A DNA stretch of 64,000 nt. It comes from Paracoccaceae bacterium (GTDB lineage: Bacteria > Pseudomonadota > Alphaproteobacteria > Rhodobacterales > Rhodobacteraceae). The notes under the pieces were generated by a model that had not been told where the DNA came from, ran no database searches, and was given only the letters and a program-made list of their open reading frames with translations. The stretch is taken from positions 585,358-649,357 of the forward strand of contig OZ244066.1 in NCBI GenBank assembly GCA_965215545.1, written 5' to 3'. Below are positions 26,189 to 48,934 of this stretch, piece by piece. The position numbers and the translations under genes were made by a program. Every line of letters begins with the position of its first letter. Positions within the stretch are counted from its first letter, which is position 1.

Positions 26189-27245
26189 ATGCAGAACCTT
26201 GCAGCACTTTTCGAGGGGACCCGTGACCCCCGCACCAGCAATGCCACCCGTCATGACCTGAACGAGATGCTGATGATTGCCCGTCTTTGCATCATGTGCG
26301 GCGGCCTGACATGCACTGACATGGCCTTGTTCGGGCCTTCGAAAGAAGCCTTCTTGCGCCGTTTCCTGACACTGGAGCACGGCATCCCGAGTCACGACGC
26401 CTTGTCTCGTCTGTTCCGCTCCCTGGATCCAGACGGTCGCCAGCGGGCCCTGGTTCGCTTGACCAGGCGTGGGTCCACGCGGCTGGGAACGGGGGTGATC
26501 GCCATTGATGGCAAGACTCTCCGACGATCGTTTGCGGTGGCGGCGCAGCGCACGCCCCTGCATGTCGTCAGATCCTTTGCCGCCGAAGCCCGCCTTGGGC
26601 TCGGTCAGGTCAGGGTCGACGGCAAGGCGGGCAAGATCACGGCCTTCCCCGCATTGCTGGACCTGACCGACCGGATCGTGACAGCGGCTGCAATGCCCAT
26701 GCAACACCGGACCGCAGACGCGATCATCGCGAAAGGTGATAATGATGTCCTGGCGCTCAAGGACAACCAAGAGACACGGCACGACGATATCCGTGTCCGC
26801 ATGGCGGACCCCGAGACGTGGCTGCTCTCGCCGGGCCACGGATATCAACAGGGGTCATGGACGCATGGAGATCCGCACCGCCACAGTCTGCCATGATCCT
26901 TGGCCGATTCAGGACACGCATCACCGGCCTGGCCTGCGGGCTGTCGGGAGGATCACTGCCACGCGGGCGATCAAGGGCCAGCAGAGCCGGGAGACAGGGC
27001 ATTTCCTCCTCAGTCAACCGCTGGACCCGGCGACGTTCCCCACGGCAGTGCGGACGTACTGGACCATTGAAAATTCCCTCCATTGGGGTCTCGATGTGAC
27101 CCGCGGAGAGGACGATCTCCGCAACCGCAGGGATAAAGGGCCGGAGACCCTGGCACCGATGCGGATACGGGCCTTGAACCTTGCACGGATGACCGATGGC
27201 GGGGCCGTCATGTCCATGCGGGCCAAACGCAAAAAAGCCGCCTGA
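26189..27245 (+). pseudogene. ISAs1-family (H-repeat-associated) transposase, frameshifted
   Basis: N-terminal part: MQNLAALFEGTRDPRTSNATRHDLNEMLMIA...IAIDGKTLRRSF...ALKDNQ. The C-terminal part, HGRMEIRTATV...YWTIENSLHWGLDVTRGEDDLRNR, is in another frame. The shift is near 26820-26845. Confidence 0.8.
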
Positions 27246-27339: not shown

Positions 27340-27349
27340 CCCCCCCCCC
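27340..27349. repeat. C10 homopolymer tract
   Basis: Counted directly. It lies between the ISAs1 right end and a 25-codon methyltransferase-like N-terminal fragment. Confidence 0.95.
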
Positions 27350-27680: not shown

Positions 27681-29513
27681 ATGGTCCAGATGACGTTGGA
27701 CCGGGCAGGGCTTGCGGAGTTTGTTGACCGTGACGAAGGCGATGAACCCCCGGTCTTTGTCGGGCGGGATCCGGTCTTTGCCGACATTCTAGCCACGGCC
27801 GACCGGAGTTGGATGGACAGGGATGGAGTGCAGGGTCGCGCGAAGGATACCCGCATCATCCAGGGTGCCCCCGGGGCCGGCAAGAGCACGATCCTCGCCG
27901 AGCTGGCAGCCCGCACCAGGGCCGGCGGCGGGGGGACGGGTAGCATCAGGACCGAGGTCCTCACGCTGAGTTCCGGTCGCATCCGCGGACCCATCGACAT
28001 CCTCGGACCGCTGGCGGCACTGGTCGATGCCGCTGCCGCCAAGGACTTCCTGACCCGCTACCAGACGACCTCCAGCCGCGGTGCCCATCTCGGCGCCTTT
28101 GGGTCATCGATCGGGGTCGAACGGGCCACGACCACAACCTCGTATGCGCCCGAGCCGACCCTGACGGCCTTCCATGATTGGGTCCGCGATTCAACGGGGG
28201 GGCTGCCGGGCCCCATCATCATAGCCATCGACGAGGCCCAGAACATGCGGTTTGGCAATGATGATCCCCGCACCAGCCTCTTGCGGTGCATCCATGAGGC
28301 CGACCCGCCCCTGCCGTTCACTCTTGTGCTCGCCGGCCTCGGCGACACCGACACCCGGGCCACGGACATGGGCCTGACCCGGGGCAAGATGCTCCACACC
28401 ATCGGGGCACTGGACCCGAACGAGGTCACCGATCTCACCCATCGGTGGTGCGGGCACTTCGGCCTGGACCCAACTGGCCATGCGGACGCTCTCGCTGCTC
28501 TTGCCGGTCCCTGTGAGGGGTGGCCGCGCCACCTCCACTTTGCCCTGCAGGCCCTCGGTCGGGACATCCTGCGCACCCAGGACGCAGGACCCGGGGCGCT
28601 CGCCGCGGTGGACTGGGAGCGGGTGGCCACAGCGGCGGCTTTCAGCCGCCTCAACTACTATCGGGGCCAGCAGCGCGGCGCCATGGCAGCGTGCGCCGCC
28701 CTTGTCGGTGCCGTTCTGGACGATCTCGGGGCTGCGGCCGCGCCGTCTCTCCTACGCCGTTCCCATGTCATCAACGGCCTCCATCGCCATACCCTGGCCC
28801 ATCCCGATGCCAGCGCGTGGCAGATCCCCAAGGGCATGGATGCCGACTCCCTGGCCGACCATCTCTTCCACCGTGGTGTCCTGCAGGAGACCCCGGATGG
28901 CTCCCTGACCTGTCCCATCCCCTCCTTTCGCTCCTATCTTGTCAGGGAGGCAGCTCGGGTGGAGGTCGGGACGCTCCTTGCCGGCGACCAGGGCCCGTCG
29001 CCGGTCGACCGGGAGGCTGACCGGATCCTGGCTGCCACCGAGCCTCACACCGAGGACGAGATCGCCCGCTGGACGGCCCTGGCATCCACCTGGCGCCGCC
29101 ACTGTGGGGCCCTGGCGACCATCGCCGGGGATACGGCCTGCCTGGCGACCGTCAAGGGTGCCCCCACCGACACCGATCGGGCCCGAGCCACCACTGTCTT
29201 GGCCACCCTCGATGCCGACGGGACGACCCCGCCCGCAGCTGGGGTCGTCCCGGACCTGCCCCACTCTCTCCCACACGCCGAGCGGGCGGCTGCGGCACTG
29301 GAGGGAATGATCGACACGGTCCGTGATGCGGCGAGGGCCATCCGTGATGGTGAGGCCGATCCCTGGCGCGCCGACACACTCGGCGCGGTCGTGAACCTGC
29401 CTGAAGAGGCGGTGGCGGCCAGCCCGGAGGAGCAGCTCGCATGGGCCCTCGAGCACCTGACCGGGGCACCACCGGAGGCACCGGAAGACTCCAGCCCTTC
29501 GATGGATCCCTGA
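27681..29513 (+). CDS. P-loop AAA ATPase (AAA_22/ExeA/ORC-like), paralogue 2, intact
   Basis: 610 aa. Walker A GAPGAGKST, Walker B IIIAIDEAQ, LVLAGLGDTDTRATDMGLTRGK, CEGWPRHLHFALQALG. About two-thirds aa identity by eye with 4973-6753. Confidence 0.75.
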   Translation: MVQMTLDRAGLAEFVDRDEGDEPPVFVGRDPVFADILATADRSWMDRDGVQGRAKDTRIIQGAPGAGKSTILAELAARTRAGGGGTGSIRTEVLTLSSGRIRGPIDILGPLAALVDAAAAKDFLTRYQTTSSRGAHLGAFGSSIGVERATTTTSYAPEPTLTAFHDWVRDSTGGLPGPIIIAIDEAQNMRFGNDDPRTSLLRCIHEADPPLPFTLVLAGLGDTDTRATDMGLTRGKMLHTIGALDPNEVTDLTHRWCGHFGLDPTGHADALAALAGPCEGWPRHLHFALQALGRDILRTQDAGPGALAAVDWERVATAAAFSRLNYYRGQQRGAMAACAALVGAVLDDLGAAAAPSLLRRSHVINGLHRHTLAHPDASAWQIPKGMDADSLADHLFHRGVLQETPDGSLTCPIPSFRSYLVREAARVEVGTLLAGDQGPSPVDREADRILAATEPHTEDEIARWTALASTWRRHCGALATIAGDTACLATVKGAPTDTDRARATTVLATLDADGTTPPAAGVVPDLPHSLPHAERAAAALEGMIDTVRDAARAIRDGEADPWRADTLGAVVNLPEEAVAASPEEQLAWALEHLTGAPPEAPEDSSPSMDP

Positions 29514-29609
29514 GGCCTTGATGGTCTGAATCCCCGGCCTTTTACATCACTTGTCAGACACCTCTTCCAGTCGGTATCTGTTGCAACGACGCCGATGGTC
29601 AGTTGAACA

Positions 29610-30975
29610 ATGATACACTCTCCGAGTGTATTATTTGGGGCCCGTGCCACCCTGAAGAGTCCATGGGCTTGACGCACCCCGCCTCGGCTGTCTGACAGCC
29701 GGCATGCGGCGCGGTCACGCCGTGTGTGACCTCTCCATTGCCAACCGTCAGGACCGGCGTCAGGACCATGACCACGCCACCATCGCCTCCACCGACCGAG
29801 TCGGGTCTGACCACGGTCTCGATAGCGGCGACCGACACCCTCCCCGGACCCACACCCTGGCCCCGCGCCTTTCAACAGGACACTGCTGACTCGGTGTTTC
29901 TGACGTTGTATTCTCGGCTGCATGAGAATCGGTCTTCGACATTACGCCCACGAGACGGTTGACTGGCTGAAGGCGGGGCTTGCGGCCAGTGACTGCACGC
30001 GCACCTTTCTGGCCCGCGGGCTCTGCGAGCGCGAGGGCTGGCGGAACGCGAAGGGCGAGCTGTGTCTTGCCTCGGCCCGGGCCGCCCTTCCGAAACTGTC
30101 CTCGGCCCCCATCGACCGCTGCCGCCGGCAGCGGTCGATGATGGCGACGCACCACCCCCGGGGCGATGCCGGCTGTCCCGGCGGGCGCCTCCGCGACTGG
30201 ATCCGCTCGCCATCGCACGGCATCCTCGGCGGGTTCACCGTCGGTGCCGCTGCCTGGCACCACAGGGCGCGTGACCGCCACATCGGCTGGTCGCAGGCGG
30301 CGCGGGACGCCAACATCGGGCGCGTGGTCAACAACGACAGGTTCCTTTTGCTGCCGGCCCGAGCGCCGCTCGACTGGCTGCTGCTGACCACCGGGGGCGG
30401 GCCCGACGCGGCGAACGTGCTCCGCGTCGTCACATGGTACGAGAAGCGATGGCTGATCGAGGAATGGTTCGCGGCCCTCAAGGTCGGAACGCGGATCAAG
30501 GACCGCAGGCTCAACGCCGGCGCCGACGGTCGTCCACCCCGACGCGATCCATGTCCTCGCCGTGCACATGGCGAAGCCCAGCCACCGCAGGCAGCGCGGC
30601 CCGGACCAGACGGTCGCGGCGTTCGCGGTCAACACCGCACGCCTCGCCGGCTTCATCCCCTCGACAGGGCAACCCACTCCGGGAACCAGGAAACTCTGGG
30701 AAGGATCCCTGATCCTGTCACTCTTCGTCGAACATCACGGGGCCATGCGCGAATACGCAAACACCGAGTCAACAGTGTTACATTGAAAGGGGCGGGACCC
30801 CCCGGATCCGGGGCCAACACGCAGGGGCTGTCGGCATGGCTCTGGCGACCCTCAGCGGGGGGTCCTGTCTGCAGGCGGTCGGCGGTGCCTGGCCACGCGA
30901 GGGCCCGACAGGTGACCGTCCGCGGGGATGGGACCGGCATCCGGCCCCAATTCCCCCTCTCGATCGCGGCCGCTA
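29610..30975 (+). mobile_element. Defective IS4-family-like element with DUF4338-like N-terminal module and long (about 250-300 bp) imperfect TIRs
   Basis: The core TIR motif GGCCCCGCGCCTTTCAACAGGACACTGCTGACTCGGTGTTT (29859-29899) is matched in inverted orientation at 30759-30799. Weaker similarity extends outward on both sides. Boundaries are +/- 30 bp. Confidence 0.5.
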
Positions 30976-30986
30976 ACTGGGACTAG
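29922..30986 (+). pseudogene. Internally deleted transposase remnant (DUF4338-like N-terminus fused to an IS4 YREK C-terminus)
   Basis: ETVDWLKAGLAASDCTRTFLARGLCEREGW and AAAWHHRARDRHIGW..VVNNDRFLLLP are DUF4338-like. VVTWYEKRWLIEEWFAALKVGTRIKDRRL is the Y-R-E-K signature of IS4/Tn5-type DDE transposases. The DDE core is missing. Confidence 0.55.
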
Positions 30987-31554: not shown

Positions 31555-31681
31555 AAAAAAAGGGGATTATATACTTGAAAACAAGAAATGAAATTAGCCG
31601 ATAAGAATCAAAATGTTATGCTTTGATCACCACCAATGAGCAAAGATAGCTTATGTCAATGATTATATTGGAGTAATCTAG

Positions 31682-32608
31682 GGCCTGTTGACACTCCCCC
31701 GCTCCGCTGCGATCCTGCCCCCCAACGACCGCCCGGAACGGGCGGCATCCCTTGGCAGGAGCCGACCCATGACCCGCGACCGATCCCGTCTTGCCGACCG
31801 CATGTGGCACCGCATCGAGTCTCTCTGTCCCGGCAAGGTCGGCGACCCCGGCGGCACCGCCGCCGCCAACCGTCTCTTCGTCGAGGCCGTTCTCTGGCCC
31901 GGGATCTGAGTCCCCTGGCGCACCGGTTCGCCCGGGCGTGACCGGCCCGCCCGCTGCGGCCCGACCGCCTGATGCACGGCAGGGGAATTCGGTCTTCCAG
32001 CGCTTCCGCCGCTGGGCTAGGAAGGGTGTCTTCGAACGCATTTTCAGGGCGTTATCGGAGGCGTTCGATCTCGAATACGTCGGCATCGACGGCACCATCG
32101 TCACGGCGCACGCCAGGGCCGCCGGCACCCCATCGGGAGCATGACCGGTGGGGGAACCTGCGATCAGGGGATCGGCCGCCCAGAGGGGCGGTCTGACCAC
32201 CAGGATCGTGGCTGTCACCGATGCCCTTGGTTACCTTGTCCACTTCGTCATCCGGCCCGGTCAGGCCCATGACCCCGGAGGCGGCCAGCGGATGGGGGAC
32301 AGACGCGGTGCTGGCGGGCCTCGATGGCGATGCCCTCATTGCCGACACGGCCTTCGATGCCGACAGCCTCCTTGCCGATCGCGAAGCACGCGGCGTCAAG
32401 GCCGCACTCCCGGCCCAACGCAACCGCACGGCGATTCGGGACCATGATCGGGACATGTCTGCCTGGCGGCACCCGATCGAGACCGTCTTTGCCAAACTCA
32501 AGGCGTTCCGGGGGATGGCGATGCGCTTCGACACGACGCTGACAAGCTTCGCGGCCTTCATTGCCCTGGTGGCCGGGGTGATTGCAGCCCGGTACGTGTC
32601 AACAGGCC
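31682..32608 (+). mobile_element. IS5-family element (IS427/IS1031-like), degenerate
   Basis: Inverted ends are GGCCTGTTGACAC / GTGTCAACAGGCC, flanked by CTAG on both sides. The transposase (MTRDRSRLADRMWHRIESLCPGKVGDPGG..., NSVFQRFRRWARKGVFERIF, ...AFDADSLLADREARGVKA...IETVFAKLKAFRGMAMRFD) is split over three frames and has an internal stop. Confidence 0.7.
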
Positions 32609-32612
32609 CTAG

Positions 32613-33497
32613 GCTGTGTACTTAAATATTGACAGATCTGTCTGGAGCTGCGAGAGGAGCCAAAAAACCATCAGGCAGGAGCAGACCCATGAGCGGACAC
32701 CGCCACGACATGACCGATGCCGAGTGGGCGATCCTCCGCTCGGTGCTTCCCCAGAGACACCAGGGACCCCGCCGGATCCATGACCGAAGGGTCATGGATG
32801 GTATCTTCTTCGTGTTGCGCACCGGCATCCCCTGGCGGGATCTCCCCGAACGCTACGGTCCCCACTCGACCTGTTTCAATCGCTACAACCGCTGGAGCAG
32901 GAACGGCACCTGGGCCCGGATCATGCGGGCCCTGGCCGAGCGGACGGATGGTGATGGAGGCCCGGTCGGACCCGTGCGCCTGCGCATGCTGGACTCCTCC
33001 GTCGTGCGGGCCCACAAGCATGCTGCCGGGGCCCGCCGCGACGGCCCGCCGCCGCCGATCGGCCGGAGCCGTGGCGGTCGGACGACCAAGGTCCATCTCG
33101 CCCTCAGCGGGACGGACGCGGTGCAGGCCCTGGTCCTGACCCCGGGTCAGGCCTCGGACTGTGCCCAGGCCGAGGCGCTGCTTGCCGACCTTCAGCCGGG
33201 GACGACCGTCCTCGGTGACAAGGCCCATGATGCCAATGCTGTCGTCCGGTGCATCGAACGGGCGGGGGGCCAGGCGAACATTCCCTCCCGGTCCTGCCGC
33301 AAGATCCCCCGGCCCTTTGACCGCACCCTGTACAAGGGTCGCAATCGGATCGAGCGGTTCTTCGGCAGGATCAAGGAATTCCGTCGCGTTGCCTCGCGCT
33401 ACGACAAGACCGCCCGCAATTTCCTCTCGGCAATCCAGCTGACGGTCAGTCGCTTCCTGCTGCGGGCTCTGGCGAAGCAATTAAATGGGTACACAGC
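32613..33497 (+). mobile_element. IS5-family element, apparently intact, inserted next to the first at the same CTAG
   Basis: Ends are GCTGTGTAC / GTACACAGC, flanked by CTAG (32609-32612 and 33498-33501). Contains one uninterrupted transposase ORF. Confidence 0.7.
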
Positions 33498-33501
33498 CTA
33501 G
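32689..33501 (+). CDS. IS5-family DDE transposase
   Basis: 270 aa from ATG 32689. MTDAEWAILRSVLPQR...RVMDGIFFVLRTGIPWRDLPERYGP (DUF4096-type N-terminus), LDSSVVRAHKHAAG, VLGDKAHDAN, NRIERFFGRIKEFRRVASRYDK. Confidence 0.85.
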   Translation: MSGHRHDMTDAEWAILRSVLPQRHQGPRRIHDRRVMDGIFFVLRTGIPWRDLPERYGPHSTCFNRYNRWSRNGTWARIMRALAERTDGDGGPVGPVRLRMLDSSVVRAHKHAAGARRDGPPPPIGRSRGGRTTKVHLALSGTDAVQALVLTPGQASDCAQAEALLADLQPGTTVLGDKAHDANAVVRCIERAGGQANIPSRSCRKIPRPFDRTLYKGRNRIERFFGRIKEFRRVASRYDKTARNFLSAIQLTVSRFLLRALAKQLNGYTA

Positions 33502-33781
33502 AAATTACTTTTTCAAGTATATAATCCCCAAAAAAAAAGGGGATTATATACCTAAGTGCCACAGTTTCCGACGGCCCGATCCGCCTGAACTGACCGCCAG
33601 ATCCGTCAGGCATCCTTATCCTCCACGACCCTCACTTGCTGGAATGCTGACCGGATCAGGTCAGCAGGCGAGGTGTCAATGCGGACATCCTTGTCCAGTT
33701 CGGCCTTGCTCGGCTGGTAGTCCGATGGCTTGAGGTGGACAGTGGGGCGGGTTTCGGTTTTCTTGGTCATGGTTTTCCTTC

Positions 33782-35196
33782 TTAGAGCCAGTCACGAATC
33801 CGGTCTTCATGGATTGCCTTGCCATTGTACGGATCCCGCATGGGCGGCATGTGGAGACGCCGATCATCAAAATAGTCTTCGATGGACCAGAGGTTCATGC
33901 GCTTGTAGTCCATGATGCCGATACTGCATGTCCCGGCATTGGTGGCTTCACGGATAGCTTCCTTCGAAGTTACCCTGTCGAGCGTGATGTAACAGCCGAT
34001 GGCGGCGTTGTCCCGCTGGATGACATGCAGGAAGTCGTGCAGGTTGCCAAGATTGAACTTGCCGCCTTTGGCTTGAGCCAACGCCAGATCGGAATCCAGA
34101 TCATCAGGGCGAACTGCCAGTTTCCCGCGGCCGTCCACCCCGCCATCGCCGACCTGCTTGGTGTTGGGGGCAAAGCCGGGAAGGCGGGTGACGGCCCAAC
34201 TTTCGAACTGGAACGGGTTGTCCTTGGCCATCAAGCGAGCCGAATACATATCGACCGGGATGCCCTTGGCTGGGATGCTCATACCCATGCGCTTTTGCCG
34301 AATGAGGTCAATGGCAAAGGCGGAGATGTCGATACCAATGAAACGTCGGTTGAGGTTACGAGCGGATTCAACTGCCGTGCCGCACCCGCAGAAGGGATCC
34401 ATGACAACATCGTTGGGGTTGCTGGAAGCACGAATGATGCGGTCAAGGAGTGCAATGGGCTTTTGGGTGGGGTAGCCGACTCGTTCTTTGGATTGAGAGT
34501 TTATGTATGGAATATCCCATACATCGCGCATATTGACATAATTGAAAACGCCCTTATCGTCTTTAAAAAATTCGGCATTTCCTGCTCCATAATTTATGAT
34601 CCCTGGCTTGCGGCTTTTGCTTTTTGTGTAGGCTTTTTCTTTCAGAACATTGAAACATGAATTTGGACCTTTTCCATAAAACAGAATGACATCGTGTTTC
34701 TTGGAAAAATGATTTTTGCCCGCCCCTCCTGTCCGATAATGCCAAATGACTTCATTCCTGAATCCCCCCCCCCCTGCTTGACAATAATTTCGTCCATCAA
34801 GGCTTTCAGGTAGTGTGAGGCTGTCGGGTCGCAGTGCAGGTAGATGGAGCCGGTGGGTTTCATGAGGCGGTGCATCTCTGCCAATCTCTCGGCCATGTAG
34901 GTGAGATAGCCAAGCATACCGCACTCGCCCAGCATGGTATGCAGACCAAGAATGGCGCGATGAGCTGGGTGAGCGATGGCATCCAGCCGGTTGGCCGCTG
35001 CATCATCCCAGACCCATGTGTCGTTGAAGGCGCGGTACTGGGCGTCGATACCCCCGCTTTTGCCAAACAGGACATTGTACTGCGCCTTGGAGTTGAAGGG
35101 CGGGTCGAGATAGATCAGGTCGATGCTCTGATCATCCCAATGTTGCATCCAGTCCAGACAATCTCCGTAGTAGAGTGTGTCCAGGTCGGGACTCAT
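33782..35196 (-). pseudogene. N6/N4 DNA methyltransferase with a C-terminal Mrr-like nuclease-fold domain; out of frame at a G11 tract (phase-OFF)
   Basis: N-terminal ORF: LYYGDCLDWMQHWDDQSIDLIYLDPPFNS (motif IV DPPF). C-terminal ORF: FRNEVIWHYRTGG..., VVMDPFCGCGTAVESA (motif I), GDGGVDGRGKL...LAQAKGG (Mrr-like). The two frames meet at the G11 run (34764-34774). 12 or 9 G would restore ...KQGGGGFRNEV.... The ATG at 35196 overlaps the transposase stop (ATGA). Confidence 0.8.
34764..34774 (-). repeat. G11 (coding-strand) homopolymer tract inside the methyltransferase gene
   Basis: Counted directly (C11 on the plus strand). It is the exact point of the frame change. Confidence 0.95.
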
Positions 35197-36179
35197 GCAG
35201 CGCACTCCTGCGCTCCGCTGTCGAGGCCATTGTCGGCCTTCAGGGCTGCATAGGTCAGCCGCTTGCCCTGCATGCGCTCGACGGTCAGTTCCAGTTGCTG
35301 GATCGTATCGCCCTCGCGCATGTTATGACGGCCAGCGAACTCGTTGATGTAGCGTTGCAGGTGCTTGGGACTCATCTTGTGATAGGTGCCCTTGTAGCCG
35401 CGCTTGAACATCGACCAGAAGGACTCGATGCCGTTGGTGTGGACAAGACCCTTCACATATTCCCCCGATGAATGCTTGACCGACTCGTGATGGAAGCCCT
35501 CGATGCCCTGATAACCCTTGTGGTCGTCGGTGTACAAGTCGGAACCCGGGGCGACTGTCTCGGCCACAAAGCCTTGCAGGGTTGCCTTGTCGGTGCTCTC
35601 GACCGTCCGGGCCACGACCGCATTGGTCTCCCGATCCTTGACCCCGGCAACGATTTCCTTGCCGACTGCCCCGCGTCCGGTCATGTCATCCCGCTTCGAC
35701 TTCGGCATGTTCTTGCGCTTGCCACCCATGTAGGTCTCATCGGCCTCGGCCGGGCCGGTGAAGAGGGGAAGTCCCGCCTCATAGGTCTTGCGGAGGCGGT
35801 GGGCCAGATGCCAGGCCGATTTCTGGGTGATCTCCAAATCCCGATGCAGTTTCATCGAACTGACGCCCTTGAGACTGGTGGTGACCAGATAGGCAGCGAT
35901 GGCCCATGTCTGGTATCCGAGTTTGCTGGACTGCATGACCGTGCCGGTCTTGACGCTGAACCGGGGCTTGTCGGCACAGTCCCGGCAACGATGGGTCATG
36001 CTGTGATGCTTGATGTTGCACTGGACATTGTCCGATCCGCAGTGGGGGCACCGGGGACCATCCGGCCAGACAATCGACTCGATCCATGTGCGGGCAGTTT
36101 CGTCATCGGGGAACATCCTGAACAACCTGGGCAGGCTGATCGTCTTGCGGTAGTGCTTGCCGGGGGCTTCGTGGGCCAT
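35193..36179 (-). CDS. IS1595-family transposase
   Basis: Start at ATG 36179 (RBS AAGGAG). N-terminal zinc ribbon WPDGPRCPHCGSDNV...HRCRDC. DDE-type core ..EADETYMGGK...LYTDDHKGY...HTNGIESFWSMFKRGYKGTYHKMSPKHLQRYINEF. Confidence 0.85.
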   Translation of the reverse strand: MAHEAPGKHYRKTISLPRLFRMFPDDETARTWIESIVWPDGPRCPHCGSDNVQCNIKHHSMTHRCRDCADKPRFSVKTGTVMQSSKLGYQTWAIAAYLVTTSLKGVSSMKLHRDLEITQKSAWHLAHRLRKTYEAGLPLFTGPAEADETYMGGKRKNMPKSKRDDMTGRGAVGKEIVAGVKDRETNAVVARTVESTDKATLQGFVAETVAPGSDLYTDDHKGYQGIEGFHHESVKHSSGEYVKGLVHTNGIESFWSMFKRGYKGTYHKMSPKHLQRYINEFAGRHNMREGDTIQQLELTVERMQGKRLTYAALKADNGLDSGAQECAA

Positions 36180-36316
36180 GGTCAGTCTCCTTGTTGCGAG
36201 TCTGATATATGGCACTTTGCTGTAAATTTCAAGGGGTCAATGGCACCTTTCTCTATTTTTCCCGGCCGCCGGGCCGGAACAAGGCTGGCACTTAGGTATA
36301 TAATCCCCAAAAAAAA

Positions 36317-36812: not shown

Positions 36813-37355
36813 TCAGTCGTTATCCCGGATGGGAATGCGCAGATGACGGGTCGGGTTGCGCATGATGACGTGGATGGCATTCTCCCCTGTGTCCCGGACA
36901 CTGTTCTCGCGGGGGGTCAGCAGGCCAGACGTAAAGCCTTCGGCCTCGGTCATGGTGTTGCACCGCTTGAACGCGCCGGCAGCCTGCCAGCGGTCGCCCT
37001 GAAGGCCGCTGGCCCCGGCAACATTGTTGGGCAGGCAGTTGGTCGCGCTGGCATCGCACGGGGTGGTGTCGAAAATTTCGGCGCAGAAGGGAATCCGGTA
37101 CTCCCGGGGTGTCTCGAAACTGCCGAAGTTGTCGCAGTTTTCCAGGATGAACTGGATGATCACACCGCCATCAGTACCTTCTGTTGCCGGCGTGCCCGCC
37201 ATCGGGAAGCCCTGGTATAACTTGATATGGGAGGCATTGCACTGTTCGGCCAGCGCCGGGCCGGTCGGCAGGGCCAGGAACAGGGTGACAGCCAGGGCGA
37301 CCGCGAGGGCCGTCAGGCGGTCAAAGGGGGGGGGGGGCAGTGTCAAGCGGGTCAT
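36813..37355 (-). CDS. Cys-rich secreted protein with a poly-Pro (C12-encoded) signal-peptide N-region
   Basis: ATG at 37355 preceded by GGAGAGAG. MTRLTLPPPPFDRLTALAVALAVTLFLALPTGPALA|EQC is a signal peptide. The mature part has 7 Cys. The longer 36813-37604 ORF has no support upstream of this ATG. Confidence 0.6.
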   Translation of the reverse strand: MTRLTLPPPPFDRLTALAVALAVTLFLALPTGPALAEQCNASHIKLYQGFPMAGTPATEGTDGGVIIQFILENCDNFGSFETPREYRIPFCAEIFDTTPCDASATNCLPNNVAGASGLQGDRWQAAGAFKRCNTMTEAEGFTSGLLTPRENSVRDTGENAIHVIMRNPTRHLRIPIRDND

Positions 37356-37457
37356 GGTCTCTCTCCGGTTTGTGTGGCCACCCGGCGGCAAGCAACGGCC
37401 ACCGGGTGGATCATCATGCTGGGACGGCGATAGCACGAGCGGGGGCCGGCTGGCAAG
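37326..37457 (-). repeat. Leader cassette copy 2 (functional): G12 tract + start codon + 5'-UTR hairpin
   Basis: Direct repeat of 36317-36447. G12 at 37326-37337 encodes PPPP in frame. Hairpin at 37378-37409. Confidence 0.85.
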
Positions 37458-37975
37458 GGGGGTGTGGCCGCCGGCGCCTCGGCCCACTTGCCTGGCCCCG
37501 GTGGTCAGGCGGGGGCCGGTCCAGGCGACAGCAGCACCGGTGACCGCGAGGGCGGGGCTGGCCCGGTCAAGCCGGGTGCCGGTGCAGGAACTGTGGGCTG
37601 GCACCGATGAGGTCAGGCGGAAGCCTGGATGGGCCCGGAATTGGCGGACCTGTCGGAACGGTTGGCGGACATGTTCCTTTCATCGGCTGGGGGTCAAGGG
37701 GGTCGGTGCTGCACGGTGCTGGTGCAGGGAGTCATGCAGCGGTCGTCATCGACAGGGCGGACAGGACAGTTGGTTTGAGGGTGGCCGGTAGTGGGGAAGC
37801 GGAAGCGTCCGGGTCGTTCGTTCCAGCGAGGGCGGCAAACCGGGCGGCATCGATATCGGGACGGTCCTCTTCGGTCGCCGGGGACGCGGGAGGGACAGGT
37901 TTCAAGGAGTGCTGTGAACCCATCGTCCACACCGGAGACGATGAGCTCCAGAGCCAACGGGGTCGCCCCACCTCA

Positions 37976-39544
37976 TCAGGGGAGGACAGCTGGCTCCGCC
38001 CGGACTTCGAGAAGGTTGCGGGCGTCGCGCCCGCAGGCGATGGCAACGAGATGGACAGTCTGGCCGTGCTGGGTGTCGGCATAGCCCCGGTCCCGCATCT
38101 GGGCGTGCGCGGCATCAAGGGCCGCCTCGGCACCATCGTGGCTGTCCGCCATCTTGAATTCGAGGATGAAGACCTGGCCGCCGAGATGGATGACCATGTC
38201 GGCCCGGCCATGGCTGGTGGCGGCCTCGGCGTGCACATCGACGCCGATGGCACGGAAGACCATGTGCAGGAGACTGGCATACCAGGCCTCGTAGCGGGCG
38301 AGGTCGCCTGTGGTGTGCCACTGGTAGGGAATGCTGGCCAGCCAGGCCTTGAGGGTCTCGGCGAAGCCTGTGAAGTCATTGGCTTCGAGCCGGTCCCGCA
38401 GGGTGTCCCCCTCATCGAGGGGCACCCGGCCCTGCGGGTTCAGGGCCGCCAGCAGATGATCGTTGAGGCTGAGCTTGACTTCCTGATTGGGATAGTCGAG
38501 CCGGTAGAGGGTGCGGTGGCCCTGGCGGATCTCGTCCGTGATGGTGAGGTAGCCGGTCTGGAACAGCAGGGCCTCGGGGCTGATGGCATCGACATCGAAC
38601 TTCGAGACCAGGGACCGGTCGGCCAGGCATCCCTCCAGGTCCAGGGGGCTGATGGACGTCCTCTTCAACGTCTCGAACAGGAAGGTCGGCGAGCCGGTCT
38701 CGAACCAGTGGGGTTTGAACTCCCGGGTGTCCAGCAGCAACAGCACATCGAAGGGATTGTAGAGGCGCTCTTCACCCAGCCAGCTGTAGCCATTGTACCA
38801 GGTGCGGATCGCCTCGCGATCGAGGCCTGTAAGCTCCGGCGCAAACACCGTGTCGAGATCGGCCTCGGTGTAGCCGCAGAGCGTGGCAAAGCGGGGATCG
38901 AGACTGATGTCCTTGAGGTTGTTCAGGCCCGAGAACAGGCTGACCCTGGAGACCATGCTGATGCCGGTGACGAACACGAAGCGGACATGGGCGGCGCTGT
39001 CCTTGATGATGCCGTAGAAACCCCGCAGATAGTCGCGGTTGGCCCGGGCCCGGGCGGGGTCGTGGAGGGCATCGAGGATGGGCTTGTCGTACTCGTCGAC
39101 GAGGACCACGACGCGCTGGCCGGTCTGGTGATGGAGGCGGTCCAGGAGATTGCGCAGGCGGCGGGGGCCGGTATCCGAAGTGGCGGCTGGTGGGAGGCCG
39201 GCATTCCGCTCAATGGCCTCCAGCTGTTCGATGATGTCGCCTTCGATCTCCTCCGGTCGGTCATACTTGCCATCAAAGCTCAGGCGTACCACCGGGTGGG
39301 TGACCGACCAGTCCCAGTGTGGGTGGATGGCGAGCCCCTGGAAGAGGGCTTCCTCGCCGGCAAACAGGGCCCGGAGCGTGTCGACCAGCAGACTCTTGCC
39401 GAAGCGGCGGGGGCGGGACAGGAAGTAGTGCCGCCCCTCTTCCACTAACCGACCGATAAGGGGTGTCTTGTCGACATAGTAGAACCCCTCGCTTCGGATG
39501 GTCGCAAAATCCTGGATCCCGATGGGCAGGTGTTGGCGGGTCAT
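37976..39544 (-). CDS. AAA-ATPase_like (DUF1703-type) N-terminal domain + PD-(D/E)XK nuclease (PDDEXK_9-type) C-terminal domain protein
   Basis: 522 aa. LPIGIQDFATIRSEGFYYVDKTPLI..YFLSRPRRFGKSLLVDTL.., VVLVDEYDKPI, and the C-terminus SHGRADMVIHLGGQVFILEFK. This is the well-known widespread family. Confidence 0.85.
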   Translation of the reverse strand: MTRQHLPIGIQDFATIRSEGFYYVDKTPLIGRLVEEGRHYFLSRPRRFGKSLLVDTLRALFAGEEALFQGLAIHPHWDWSVTHPVVRLSFDGKYDRPEEIEGDIIEQLEAIERNAGLPPAATSDTGPRRLRNLLDRLHHQTGQRVVVLVDEYDKPILDALHDPARARANRDYLRGFYGIIKDSAAHVRFVFVTGISMVSRVSLFSGLNNLKDISLDPRFATLCGYTEADLDTVFAPELTGLDREAIRTWYNGYSWLGEERLYNPFDVLLLLDTREFKPHWFETGSPTFLFETLKRTSISPLDLEGCLADRSLVSKFDVDAISPEALLFQTGYLTITDEIRQGHRTLYRLDYPNQEVKLSLNDHLLAALNPQGRVPLDEGDTLRDRLEANDFTGFAETLKAWLASIPYQWHTTGDLARYEAWYASLLHMVFRAIGVDVHAEAATSHGRADMVIHLGGQVFILEFKMADSHDGAEAALDAAHAQMRDRGYADTQHGQTVHLVAIACGRDARNLLEVRAEPAVLP

Positions 39545-48319: not shown

Positions 48320-48934
48320 CTACTGGGTCGACCCGTCGGTCTCGCCCCACTCGTCGAGTGTCGCACAGCCCTTGCCGCCGGTAAACAGGAAGTGGGCGCT
48401 GCCGGCGACACCGTGATTCGATCCTGGATTCAGCCGAAAGTCCTGCACCACCAGCTCACCGGGGCTGCGCTGGATATTGCTGAGATTGCGATTGCTCCAG
48501 ATTTGGGCACCAGCCTTGGGGCGGACCTCGATGAGGTTCGCGCCGAGCACGCCGCCGGCAAAGCCAATTCGATTGGCAGCGGGGTCCTGCCACTGGTTTC
48601 TGTTCGAAGCCGTGGCGCGCCACTCCCGGTTGGAGAATGCCGTCGCCCGGAGATCGCTGGTTGCCTGAATCCAATAGCCAGAGATCTGAAAGCTCGCCCG
48701 CATCACGCTGGGATCGGTGCTCGAGAAGATGATCTTCATGCGGCCGAGCGTGGCGGCCCCACCGTAGCCGTCCACGACCTGGCCGCCGTTGACTGATGCC
48801 ATCCGGACAGTGCATTTGTTGCGGTCGCAGGTAGCCTGGGCGTGCGCCTCACCCGCGGGCAGGGTCAGTGTGAGGGCCAGCAGGGCGGTGGCCAGAAGGG
48901 TCAGGGGGGGGGGCGGGTGGATCAAGTGTCGCAT
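48320..48934 (-). CDS. Secreted protein with a poly-Pro (C10-encoded) signal-peptide N-region
   Basis: RBS GGAGGA. MRHLIHPPPPLTLLATALLALTLTLPAGEAHA|QATC is a signal peptide. The leader style matches the 37355 gene, but the mature part is unrelated. Confidence 0.55.
   Translation of the reverse strand: MRHLIHPPPPLTLLATALLALTLTLPAGEAHAQATCDRNKCTVRMASVNGGQVVDGYGGAATLGRMKIIFSSTDPSVMRASFQISGYWIQATSDLRATAFSNREWRATASNRNQWQDPAANRIGFAGGVLGANLIEVRPKAGAQIWSNRNLSNIQRSPGELVVQDFRLNPGSNHGVAGSAHFLFTGGKGCATLDEWGETDGSTQ
48904..48913 (-). repeat. G10 tract (plus strand) inside codons 7-10 of the 48934 gene
   Basis: Counted directly. Encodes P-P-P-P in frame. Confidence 0.95.

Follow-up and report, generated by a model that had tools for sequence, protein, structure and literature searches.

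A homopolymeric G tract divides the methyltransferase gene of an IS1595-family element in a Rhodobacterales bacterium: a candidate mobile contingency switch

We have analysed a stretch of 64,000 nucleotides (called the window throughout; 62% GC) from contig OZ244066.1 of a bacterium catalogued under Paracoccaceae (assembly GCA_965215545.1, positions 585,358 to 649,357), and find that it carries a 2770-bp insertion sequence (IS) of the IS1595 family at 33539-36308 whose passenger, a DNA methyltransferase (methylase) gene, is divided between two reading frames by a run of 11 G. On the plus strand the run occupies 34764-34774 and counts exactly 11 C; the coding strand is the minus strand, where it reads as G11, and two overlapping minus-strand open reading frames (ORFs) change over there. 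The upstream ORF (34642..35205) reads ...MDEIIVKQGGG (...HCDPTASHYLKALMDEIIVKQGGG), continues off-frame as DSGMK... and stops after 187 amino acids (aa), 40 codons past the tract, and the downstream ORF (33782..34924) reads ...QAGGGGFRNEVIWHYRTGG... across the same point. When the tract was replaced in silico, G9 and G12 each gave a single ORF from a GTG start, of 473 and 474 aa, and G10, G11 and G13 gave early stops. A second script likewise scored lengths of 9, 12 and 15 as in frame (ON), with an ORF of about 470 aa. Across 1.4 kb of the methylase there is no second lesion, and the remainder of the gene is open. A first-pass annotation of this DNA had proposed that a G11 run splits the frames of a transposon-borne methyltransferase, that lengths of 9 or 12 would restore an ORF of about 470 aa, and that the gene is out of frame (OFF) at 11, and on all of these points the closer analysis agrees.

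Three runs of G or C of at least 11 nt are observed in the window against 0.3 expected in a first-order Markov simulation, and the run lengths are bimodal, with 27 runs of length 6 and three of 7, then a gap at 8-9, and six more runs of 10-12 nt. In the methylase gene the glycine codons at the tract are GGG GGG GGG GGA, whereas GGG accounts for 19% of its other glycine codons. A published in silico criterion for methyltransferases switched by simple sequence repeats (SSRs) is a mononucleotide run of at least 9 nt within the ORF (Atack et al., 2018; PMC5909438), and the G11 tract is of this kind. Its length alone decides whether the frame of the gene is full-length or truncated, and the length varies between near-identical alleles, as set out below; the architectural likeness to SSR-switched methyltransferases that had been noticed at the outset is thus borne out by the length of the tract and by the dependence of the frame on it.

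The methylase gene follows directly on the transposase gene, which matches the profiles PF12760 (8e-11), PF12762 (2e-40) and NF033547 (1e-53), that is, a zinc ribbon with an ISXO2-like DDE domain (Table 1). The TGA of the transposase overlaps the ATG of the methylase (ATGA), an arrangement typical of translational coupling. The 23-bp terminal inverted repeats are perfect and have no further occurrence within the window, and the flanking A9 and A8 runs fit the 8-bp duplication of the family, the exact size of the duplication being ambiguous in a homopolymeric target. Members of the IS1595 family end in repeats of about 25 bp and duplicate 8 bp of their target (PMC5704250), and the features expected of an IS1595 transporter IS, namely the transposase domains, the repeats with the duplication, and a passenger gene inside the repeats, are all present here.

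Table 1. Coordinates of the methylase gene, its domains and the surrounding IS1595-family element in the window
Feature	Position	Strand	Remarks
G11 homopolymer (C11 on the plus strand)	34764..34774	-	Frame junction; Gly loop between helix ...HYLKALMDEIIV and strand FRNEVIWHY
N-terminal methyltransferase frame	34642..35196	-	184 aa from ATG; motif IV DPPF; P0128 in the protein database
C-terminal methyltransferase frame	33782..34763	-	Tract to stop, 326 codons; FRNEVIW (motif VIII), target-recognition region, motif I DPFCGCGT, Mrr_cat-like domain
Low-GC segment directly 3' of the tract	34480..34760	-	36-43% GC; corresponds to the variable target-recognition region
Mrr_cat-like PD-(D/E)XK domain	33902..34189	-	Residues ~340-435, PF04471
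IS1595-family transposase	35193..36179	-	328 aa; zinc ribbon and DDE_Tnp_IS1595
Terminal inverted repeat, methylase-side end	33539..33561	+	GGGGATTATATACCTAAGTGCCA
Terminal inverted repeat, transposase-side end	36286..36308	+	23/23 complementary to the other end
A9 flank	33530..33538		One copy of the duplicated A8 target
A8 flank	36309..36316		Other copy of the 8-bp target duplication
Small ORF	33606..33770	-	54 aa, no family match; between methylase stop and IS end

The order of transposase and then methylase recurs in six related loci (L001, L084, L088, L093, L096 and L097), sometimes with a small ORF after the methylase. Small ORFs at the equal position in relatives (L084, 2532-2726; L089, 1470-1661) encode basic proteins of 63-64 aa, and no mutual sequence similarity and no family match was detected among those of the window, L084 and L089. 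Scans for consensus promoters and terminators found none on the coding strand inside the IS, Rfam at its gathering threshold gave no match in the window, and searches of a plasmid collection by megablast and tblastn returned distant matches only. The carriage of a methylase by an IS is not new by itself, since solitary M genes flanked by IS elements or carried in the IS1595 family are on record in a passage of PMC2853133 that cites Siguier et al. (2009).

The repaired protein matches N6_N4_Mtase (PF01555, 2.6e-44, residues 28-302), and its motif order is that of the beta class, with motif IV (DPPF) ahead of motif I (DPFCGCGT, containing FCGCG); D34-P-P-F37 and F272-C-G-C-G are invariant in an alignment of homologs. 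By both sequence and fold the closest solved structures are the beta-class N6-adenine methyltransferases M.MboIIA, CcrM, M.RsrI and M.BceJIV, and the EcoP15I Mod and Mbo45V Mod proteins are also among the matches. We considered the Mod subunit of a Type III system as an identity for this protein and rejected it: there is no adjacent res gene, and the neighbours are the IS1595 transposase and the 54-aa ORF, all within the 2770-bp IS.

Behind the methylase domain lies a second domain, which scores 25.3 bits against Mrr_cat (PF04471; cut-off 21, E 1.8e-5), above the gathering score. In 113 aligned homologs the putative nuclease residues E335, D354, D358, Q378 and K380 do not vary, which argues that the C-terminal domain is under constraint. 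A fold search with the whole chain returned methylase matches only, the methylase domain having dominated the search. Because this conserved Mrr-like domain is present, the enzyme may be a single-chain restriction-modification enzyme and not a pure regulator.

Two further features of the protein bear on the position of the tract. In an AlphaFold model of an in-frame sister protein (described below; mean predicted local distance difference test score 83), the glycine residues 140-145 form a loop that joins a helix (124-139) to the strand of motif VIII (146-155, FRNEVIWHYR), and as the tract codes for loop glycines, in-frame changes in its length should be tolerated, to judge from the model. The segment that follows the tract has the low GC content given in Table 1, compared with 55-60% in the rest of the gene. 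In one related genome, the paralogs P0002 and P0003 share 97-100% identity in the N- and C-terminal parts and only 13-50% over residues ~120-240: the target-recognition region is swapped between otherwise near-identical proteins. A repeat tract together with a centre that is exchanged between conserved flanks is the pattern described for mod alleles (PMC5909438).

The best database match to the repaired protein is P0001 (472 aa), which equals the repaired window gene with one extra glycine and one Y-to-H change near the C-terminus. Its loop reads KQGGGGGF, with five glycines and in frame, and its tract would be G15 if uninterrupted. By exact look-up, six proteins of the window (P0121-P0124, P0128 and P0129), including the 184-aa fragment of the G11 allele (P0128) and the transposase (P0124), are found on a contig of 3,134,200 bp, as is P0001. 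The chromosome therefore has at least two copies of the element, a window copy with G11 that is OFF and a sister copy that is in frame, or ON. The two differ by 4 nt in the tract, taking G15 for the sister, and by a single residue elsewhere, so that the tract seems to mutate much faster than the rest of the gene. As the sister copy is in frame and has the same recognition region, the OFF state of the window locus does not make the cell unmethylated. A phasevarion calls for an active enzyme with a defined motif and for a set of genes that are expressed differently in ON and OFF cells. It also requires that one switch sets the methylation of the cell, and what we find is a second in-frame copy, with the same recognition region, on the same contig; the label of candidate phasevarion that the first-pass annotation had attached to the gene was for this reason too strong.

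On the same contig of 3.13 Mb, a variant of the transposase, P0125, is identical to P0124 save for the last residues (...GARAE versus ...GAQECAA). This difference in the tail implies a further copy of the element with a different junction between transposase and passenger.

A run of G9-G12 lies at exactly the site of the window tract in ten or more divergent relatives, which are 35-60% identical and come from contigs of 37-67% GC. In most homologs the site reads MDAIFG(K/Q)(E/N)NFRNEIVW; a subset has a GGG(G/A) loop instead, and wherever the DNA is visible this loop is coded by a long G run. The tract had initially been regarded as atypical for a high-GC alphaproteobacterium and for an IS-borne gene, and the comparison reverses this: the tract is a trait conserved in the methylase family, a large part of which travels on IS1595 elements. 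Relatives with in-frame alleles are L088 (P0013, 57% identity, gene GC 0.40) and L098 (P0039), both with G11, L097 (P0004) with A7-T-G9, and L084 (P0042) with an interrupted G5AG5. Over four lineages the loop glycine codons are GGG in 11 of 12 cases, compared with 15-27% GGG elsewhere in the same genes (40-53% GC). Since this bias is also seen in genes of 40-46% GC, the uninterrupted run is not a by-product of composition, and an origin of the tract in GC content or codon usage could be ruled out.

Alleles were also sought without regard to frame, by searching metagenome DNA with the pattern G9, 0-6 bases, TTY MGN AAY GAR RTN NNN TGG, which returned seven loci. One of these, L091, is a chance match and not a methylase. 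The other six are members of the family with the run at the same site, on contigs of 37-67% GC, and all six are out of frame. A shift of +1 would bring L090, L094 and L095 (each G9) into frame, and a shift of -1 would do so for L092 (G9), L093 (G10) and L096 (G12); with the window copy included, four alleles call for +1 and three for -1. The open frames that flank the tract in these six OFF loci are 118-180 and 257-347 aa long where the contig allows. An IS1595 transposase lies upstream in L093 and L096, and three others are without a transposase match in the flanks available.

Truncated proteins tell of the same site. With the N-terminal 144 residues as query, a protein search yielded short proteins only. 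Of the 120 best of these N-terminal fragments, 15 end in MDxIF...GGG and an off-frame tail, and in at least five others the frame changes at the same site; some of the fragments are on contigs of complete-genome size (2.8 to 3.7 Mb). One of them, P0153, is 100% identical to P0013 in its N-terminal part and has a tail that is the shifted reading of the P0013 sequence, so that P0153 (OFF, with a probable G10) and P0013 (ON, G11) are a second ON/OFF pair of alleles. Patterns with the exact flanks and a variable gap gave no matches in genome and metagenome DNA collections, and the degenerate tract pattern gave none in viral contigs.

Two different truncated N-terminal methylase fragments, P0134 and P0140, both end at the site of the glycine run and are on one contig of 2,844,637 bp; another organism thus appears to hold two OFF copies at once.

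Other long runs of the window also lie in genes. In the gene at 36813-37604 (minus strand), a C12 run on the coding strand (G12 on the plus strand, 37326-37337) forms codons 7-10 and reads PPPP, in frame. This gene has its likely start at MTRLTLPPPPFDRLTALAVALAV..., with a signal-peptide-like leader and GGAGAGAGACC ahead of it, and its protein is without a Pfam match; its layout is the classical one of a contingency locus in the gene of a secreted or surface protein. A second gene, at 48320-48934 (minus strand), encodes a protein of 204 aa that looks secreted (MRHLIHPPPPLTLLATALLAL...) and has C10 at codons 7-10, in frame (48904-48913, G10 on the plus strand). About 45 nt upstream of its start lies another C10 (48977-48986, G10 on the plus strand) in the same CCGC10TGA context, possibly in a promoter or leader. 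The bimodal run lengths of the window, together with these runs at codons 7-10 of signal-peptide genes, suggest that the genome keeps or uses such 10-12-nt G/C tracts generally. One more C10, on the plus strand at 27340-27349, is apparently non-coding and lies between an IS fragment and the AAA gene that begins at 27681.

The methylase IS shares its insertion site with another element. Between 31555 and 36327 two elements are found in what was one A8 run, in the order A7, left element (31562-33529), A9, methylase IS and A8, and the A runs around both sum to 24, or three times 8. The A8 target comes just after a run of C11 (36317-36327 on the plus strand) and belongs to a paralog of the 36813-37604 gene that is disrupted and has ATA as its start codon. 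At the ends of the left element are perfect 20-bp repeats, of which the first 13 bp (GGGGATTATATAC) are those of the methylase IS, so that the same kind of transposase probably moved it. Nested within it is IS5-family material (31678-32612 and 32629-33501), one unit of which is bounded by perfect 17-bp inverted repeats (31678-31694 and 32596-32612), and it also holds a 290-aa transposase (DUF4096 and DDE_Tnp_1). Farther out, the intervals 27681-30986 and 37976-39544 encode a 610-aa AAA_16/AAA_22 protein, a 354-aa protein with a DruA (Druantia) match and a 522-aa protein with AAA-ATPase_like and PDDEXK_9 domains, and several IS fragments are present, among them an ISAs1-like one at ~26736-27245. 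This neighbourhood looks like a defence or mobile island. The methionyl-tRNA synthetase of the window is 67-71% identical to that of many genera of Rhodobacterales and Paracoccaceae, which makes the host a fairly divergent member of the Rhodobacterales.

Taken together, we consider it probable that the tract is a hypermutable switch under selection, rather than the outcome of decay, error or recoding. Frequent and reversible switching in a population is an inference, as are the activity of the enzyme and the purpose of the switch. Several points weigh against a selected switch: the G15 of the sister copy is deduced from the protein and not read from DNA, and the others are given here beside the alternative that each of them touches.

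The alternative that survives best, which we nevertheless hold to be unlikely, is a plain pseudogene: the homopolymer would be a mutational hotspot only, and a redundant IS copy has been frameshifted and is decaying, with no adaptive switching. An intact sister copy in the same chromosome means that loss is tolerated, and with that copy ON the OFF copy of the window could simply be redundant and starting to decay. Passengers of IS elements do decay, also in this methylase family. In a 4.0-Mb genome, a related IS1595 element of about 4.9 kb (L099, 3875-8736), with a transposase 90% identical to that of the window and a right end 87% identical, carries a 495-aa AAA_16/AAA_22 protein and small ORFs as other cargo, and its methylase is truncated and degenerate and lacks exactly the YLK...FRN segment with the tract site. 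Furthermore, every example found without frame bias is OFF, all seven with the window copy counted; with random frames the probability of this is (2/3)^7 = 0.06, and such a set fits a weakly selected mutational hotspot as well as it fits a switch biased towards OFF. Against decay stands the lack of any second lesion in 1.4 kb of the window gene, and both halves of the gene are open in five or six independent OFF lineages. The tract is found at the same codon positions across contigs of 37-67% GC, and together with the strong GGG bias this implies selection for an uninterrupted run. Finally, in two lineages alleles that are otherwise identical differ in being ON or OFF.

An error of sequencing or assembly is an improbable explanation in our view. 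The true run would then be 12 (or 9 or 15) and the gene intact, and polishing across two IS copies, which are near-identical repeats, possibly made a miscall worse. A single contig of 3.13 Mb suggests a long-read assembly, in which long homopolymers are error-prone and runs above ~8 are unreliable. On the other side, the other long coding runs of the window, C12 at 37326 and C10 at 48904, are in frame, many long ORFs, the longest of 1746 aa, are unbroken, six metagenome contigs with OFF lengths at the same site were assembled independently, and the truncated fragments come from many projects.

Programmed recoding, in which the out-of-frame state would be normal and the G run would let a little full-length enzyme through by slippage in transcription or by frameshifting of the ribosome, is the explanation to which we give the least credence. 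IS elements often use recoding, as the transposases of IS1 and IS3 do on A runs, and this methylase gene sits in an IS operon; none of the seven alleles found without frame bias is in frame, and either frame could gain some leaky expression from slippage on the run. Such recoding is hard to reconcile with a required shift that differs between lineages, with the in-frame alleles of four lineages, with the lack of a stable RNA structure downstream of the tract (z = +1.36 versus shuffles), and with documented slippage of bacterial RNA polymerase, which concerns A/T runs (PMC6260861). Some leaky expression by slippage at the tract is possible.

If the tract is a selected switch, slipped-strand mispairing at replication would alter the length of the G run, and a run of 9, 12 or 15 gives the full-length protein. 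A run of 11 gives a fragment of 184-187 aa that keeps motif IV and is without motif VIII, the recognition region, the S-adenosylmethionine motif and the nuclease domain. The window copy is OFF and one G insertion away from ON, and the sister copy is ON, with the glycine loop between the helix and the motif VIII strand accommodating changes of length that keep the frame. As to purpose, our preferred guess is that the switch would silence and re-arm a potentially self-damaging methylase-nuclease on a mobile element. Extending this to the family, we put forward only tentatively that widespread IS1595 transporter ISs carry a self-contained, repeat-switched methylase-nuclease in which selection keeps a poly-G run at the loop before motif VIII over contigs of 37-67% GC. 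Stochastic silencing would help the element to settle and persist where the active enzyme is harmful, and rare ON variants would re-arm defence, addiction or epigenetic effects, so that the gene would be a mobile contingency locus spread by transposition and not a phasevarion evolved by the host. As the transposase and the methylase seem to be translationally coupled, it is conceivable that ON variants possibly also control the transposition of the element itself.

Should the switching prove true, mobile elements can carry a contingency switch of their own, and transposition can give a genome a stochastic epigenetic or restriction switch or multiply one that it has. Pseudogene calls of the type "frameshifted methylase" beside IS1595 transposases would need to be read again, and an ON and an OFF copy in one chromosome would provide a simple test system.

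Phase-variable mod genes and other restriction-modification genes classically switch through a homopolymer within the gene that sets its frame. In the literature that we searched, on IS1595 and methyltransferases, on passengers, on phase variation, on contingency loci of Rhodobacteraceae and on methylase-Mrr fusions, we did not find a switch of the present type described, and within that literature three aspects appear to be new: a switch in an IS1595 passenger, its conservation at one loop across divergent and mostly environmental lineages, and the fusion of a beta-class methylase with an Mrr-like domain. The closest transporter ISs of the family, tISCpe8 and MTnSag1, share with the window element the zinc ribbon and DDE transposase, repeats of about 25 bp, the 8-bp duplication and a passenger inside the repeats, and they differ in that the literature searched describes no repeat-mediated switch in a passenger gene. 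In homopolymer recoding of IS1 and IS3, too, a homopolymer parts two frames of an IS-encoded gene, but here the run lies in the passenger and not in the transposase, consists of G and not of A or T, has no conserved direction of shift in the family and no stimulatory structure, and in-frame alleles exist.

Among restriction-modification enzymes, Cj0031 of Campylobacter jejuni is reportedly one polypeptide with methylase and nuclease, switched by an intragenic poly-G run, and is said to have a gamma-class methylase and an N-terminal nuclease and to be encoded at a chromosomal, non-IS locus. It resembles the window enzyme in joining methylase and nuclease-like domains in one chain and in its intragenic poly-G, whereas the window methylase is of the beta class, its Mrr-like domain is C-terminal and a putative nuclease, and its gene is IS-borne. 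Cj0031 is a phase-variable single-chain Type IIG enzyme according to Anjum et al. (2016), as cited in an excerpt of PMC13076061. With the phase-variable mod genes the window gene has in common the beta-class N6_N4 methyltransferase fold, an intragenic repeat whose length sets the ON or OFF frame, and recognition-region alleles with conserved flanks. It departs from them in having no res partner, its neighbours being a transposase and a small ORF; in being an IS1595 passenger with at least two copies per genome; in the C-terminal Mrr-like domain and the position of the tract in the loop before motif VIII; and in its host, which belongs to a Rhodobacterales lineage of the free-living type. Knowledge of repeat-switched methyltransferases comes mainly from the Type I and Type III systems of host-adapted pathogens, and what sets the present case apart is a solitary fusion of a beta-class methylase with an Mrr-like domain, carried as an IS passenger, with a poly-G run conserved at one site in many environmental lineages.

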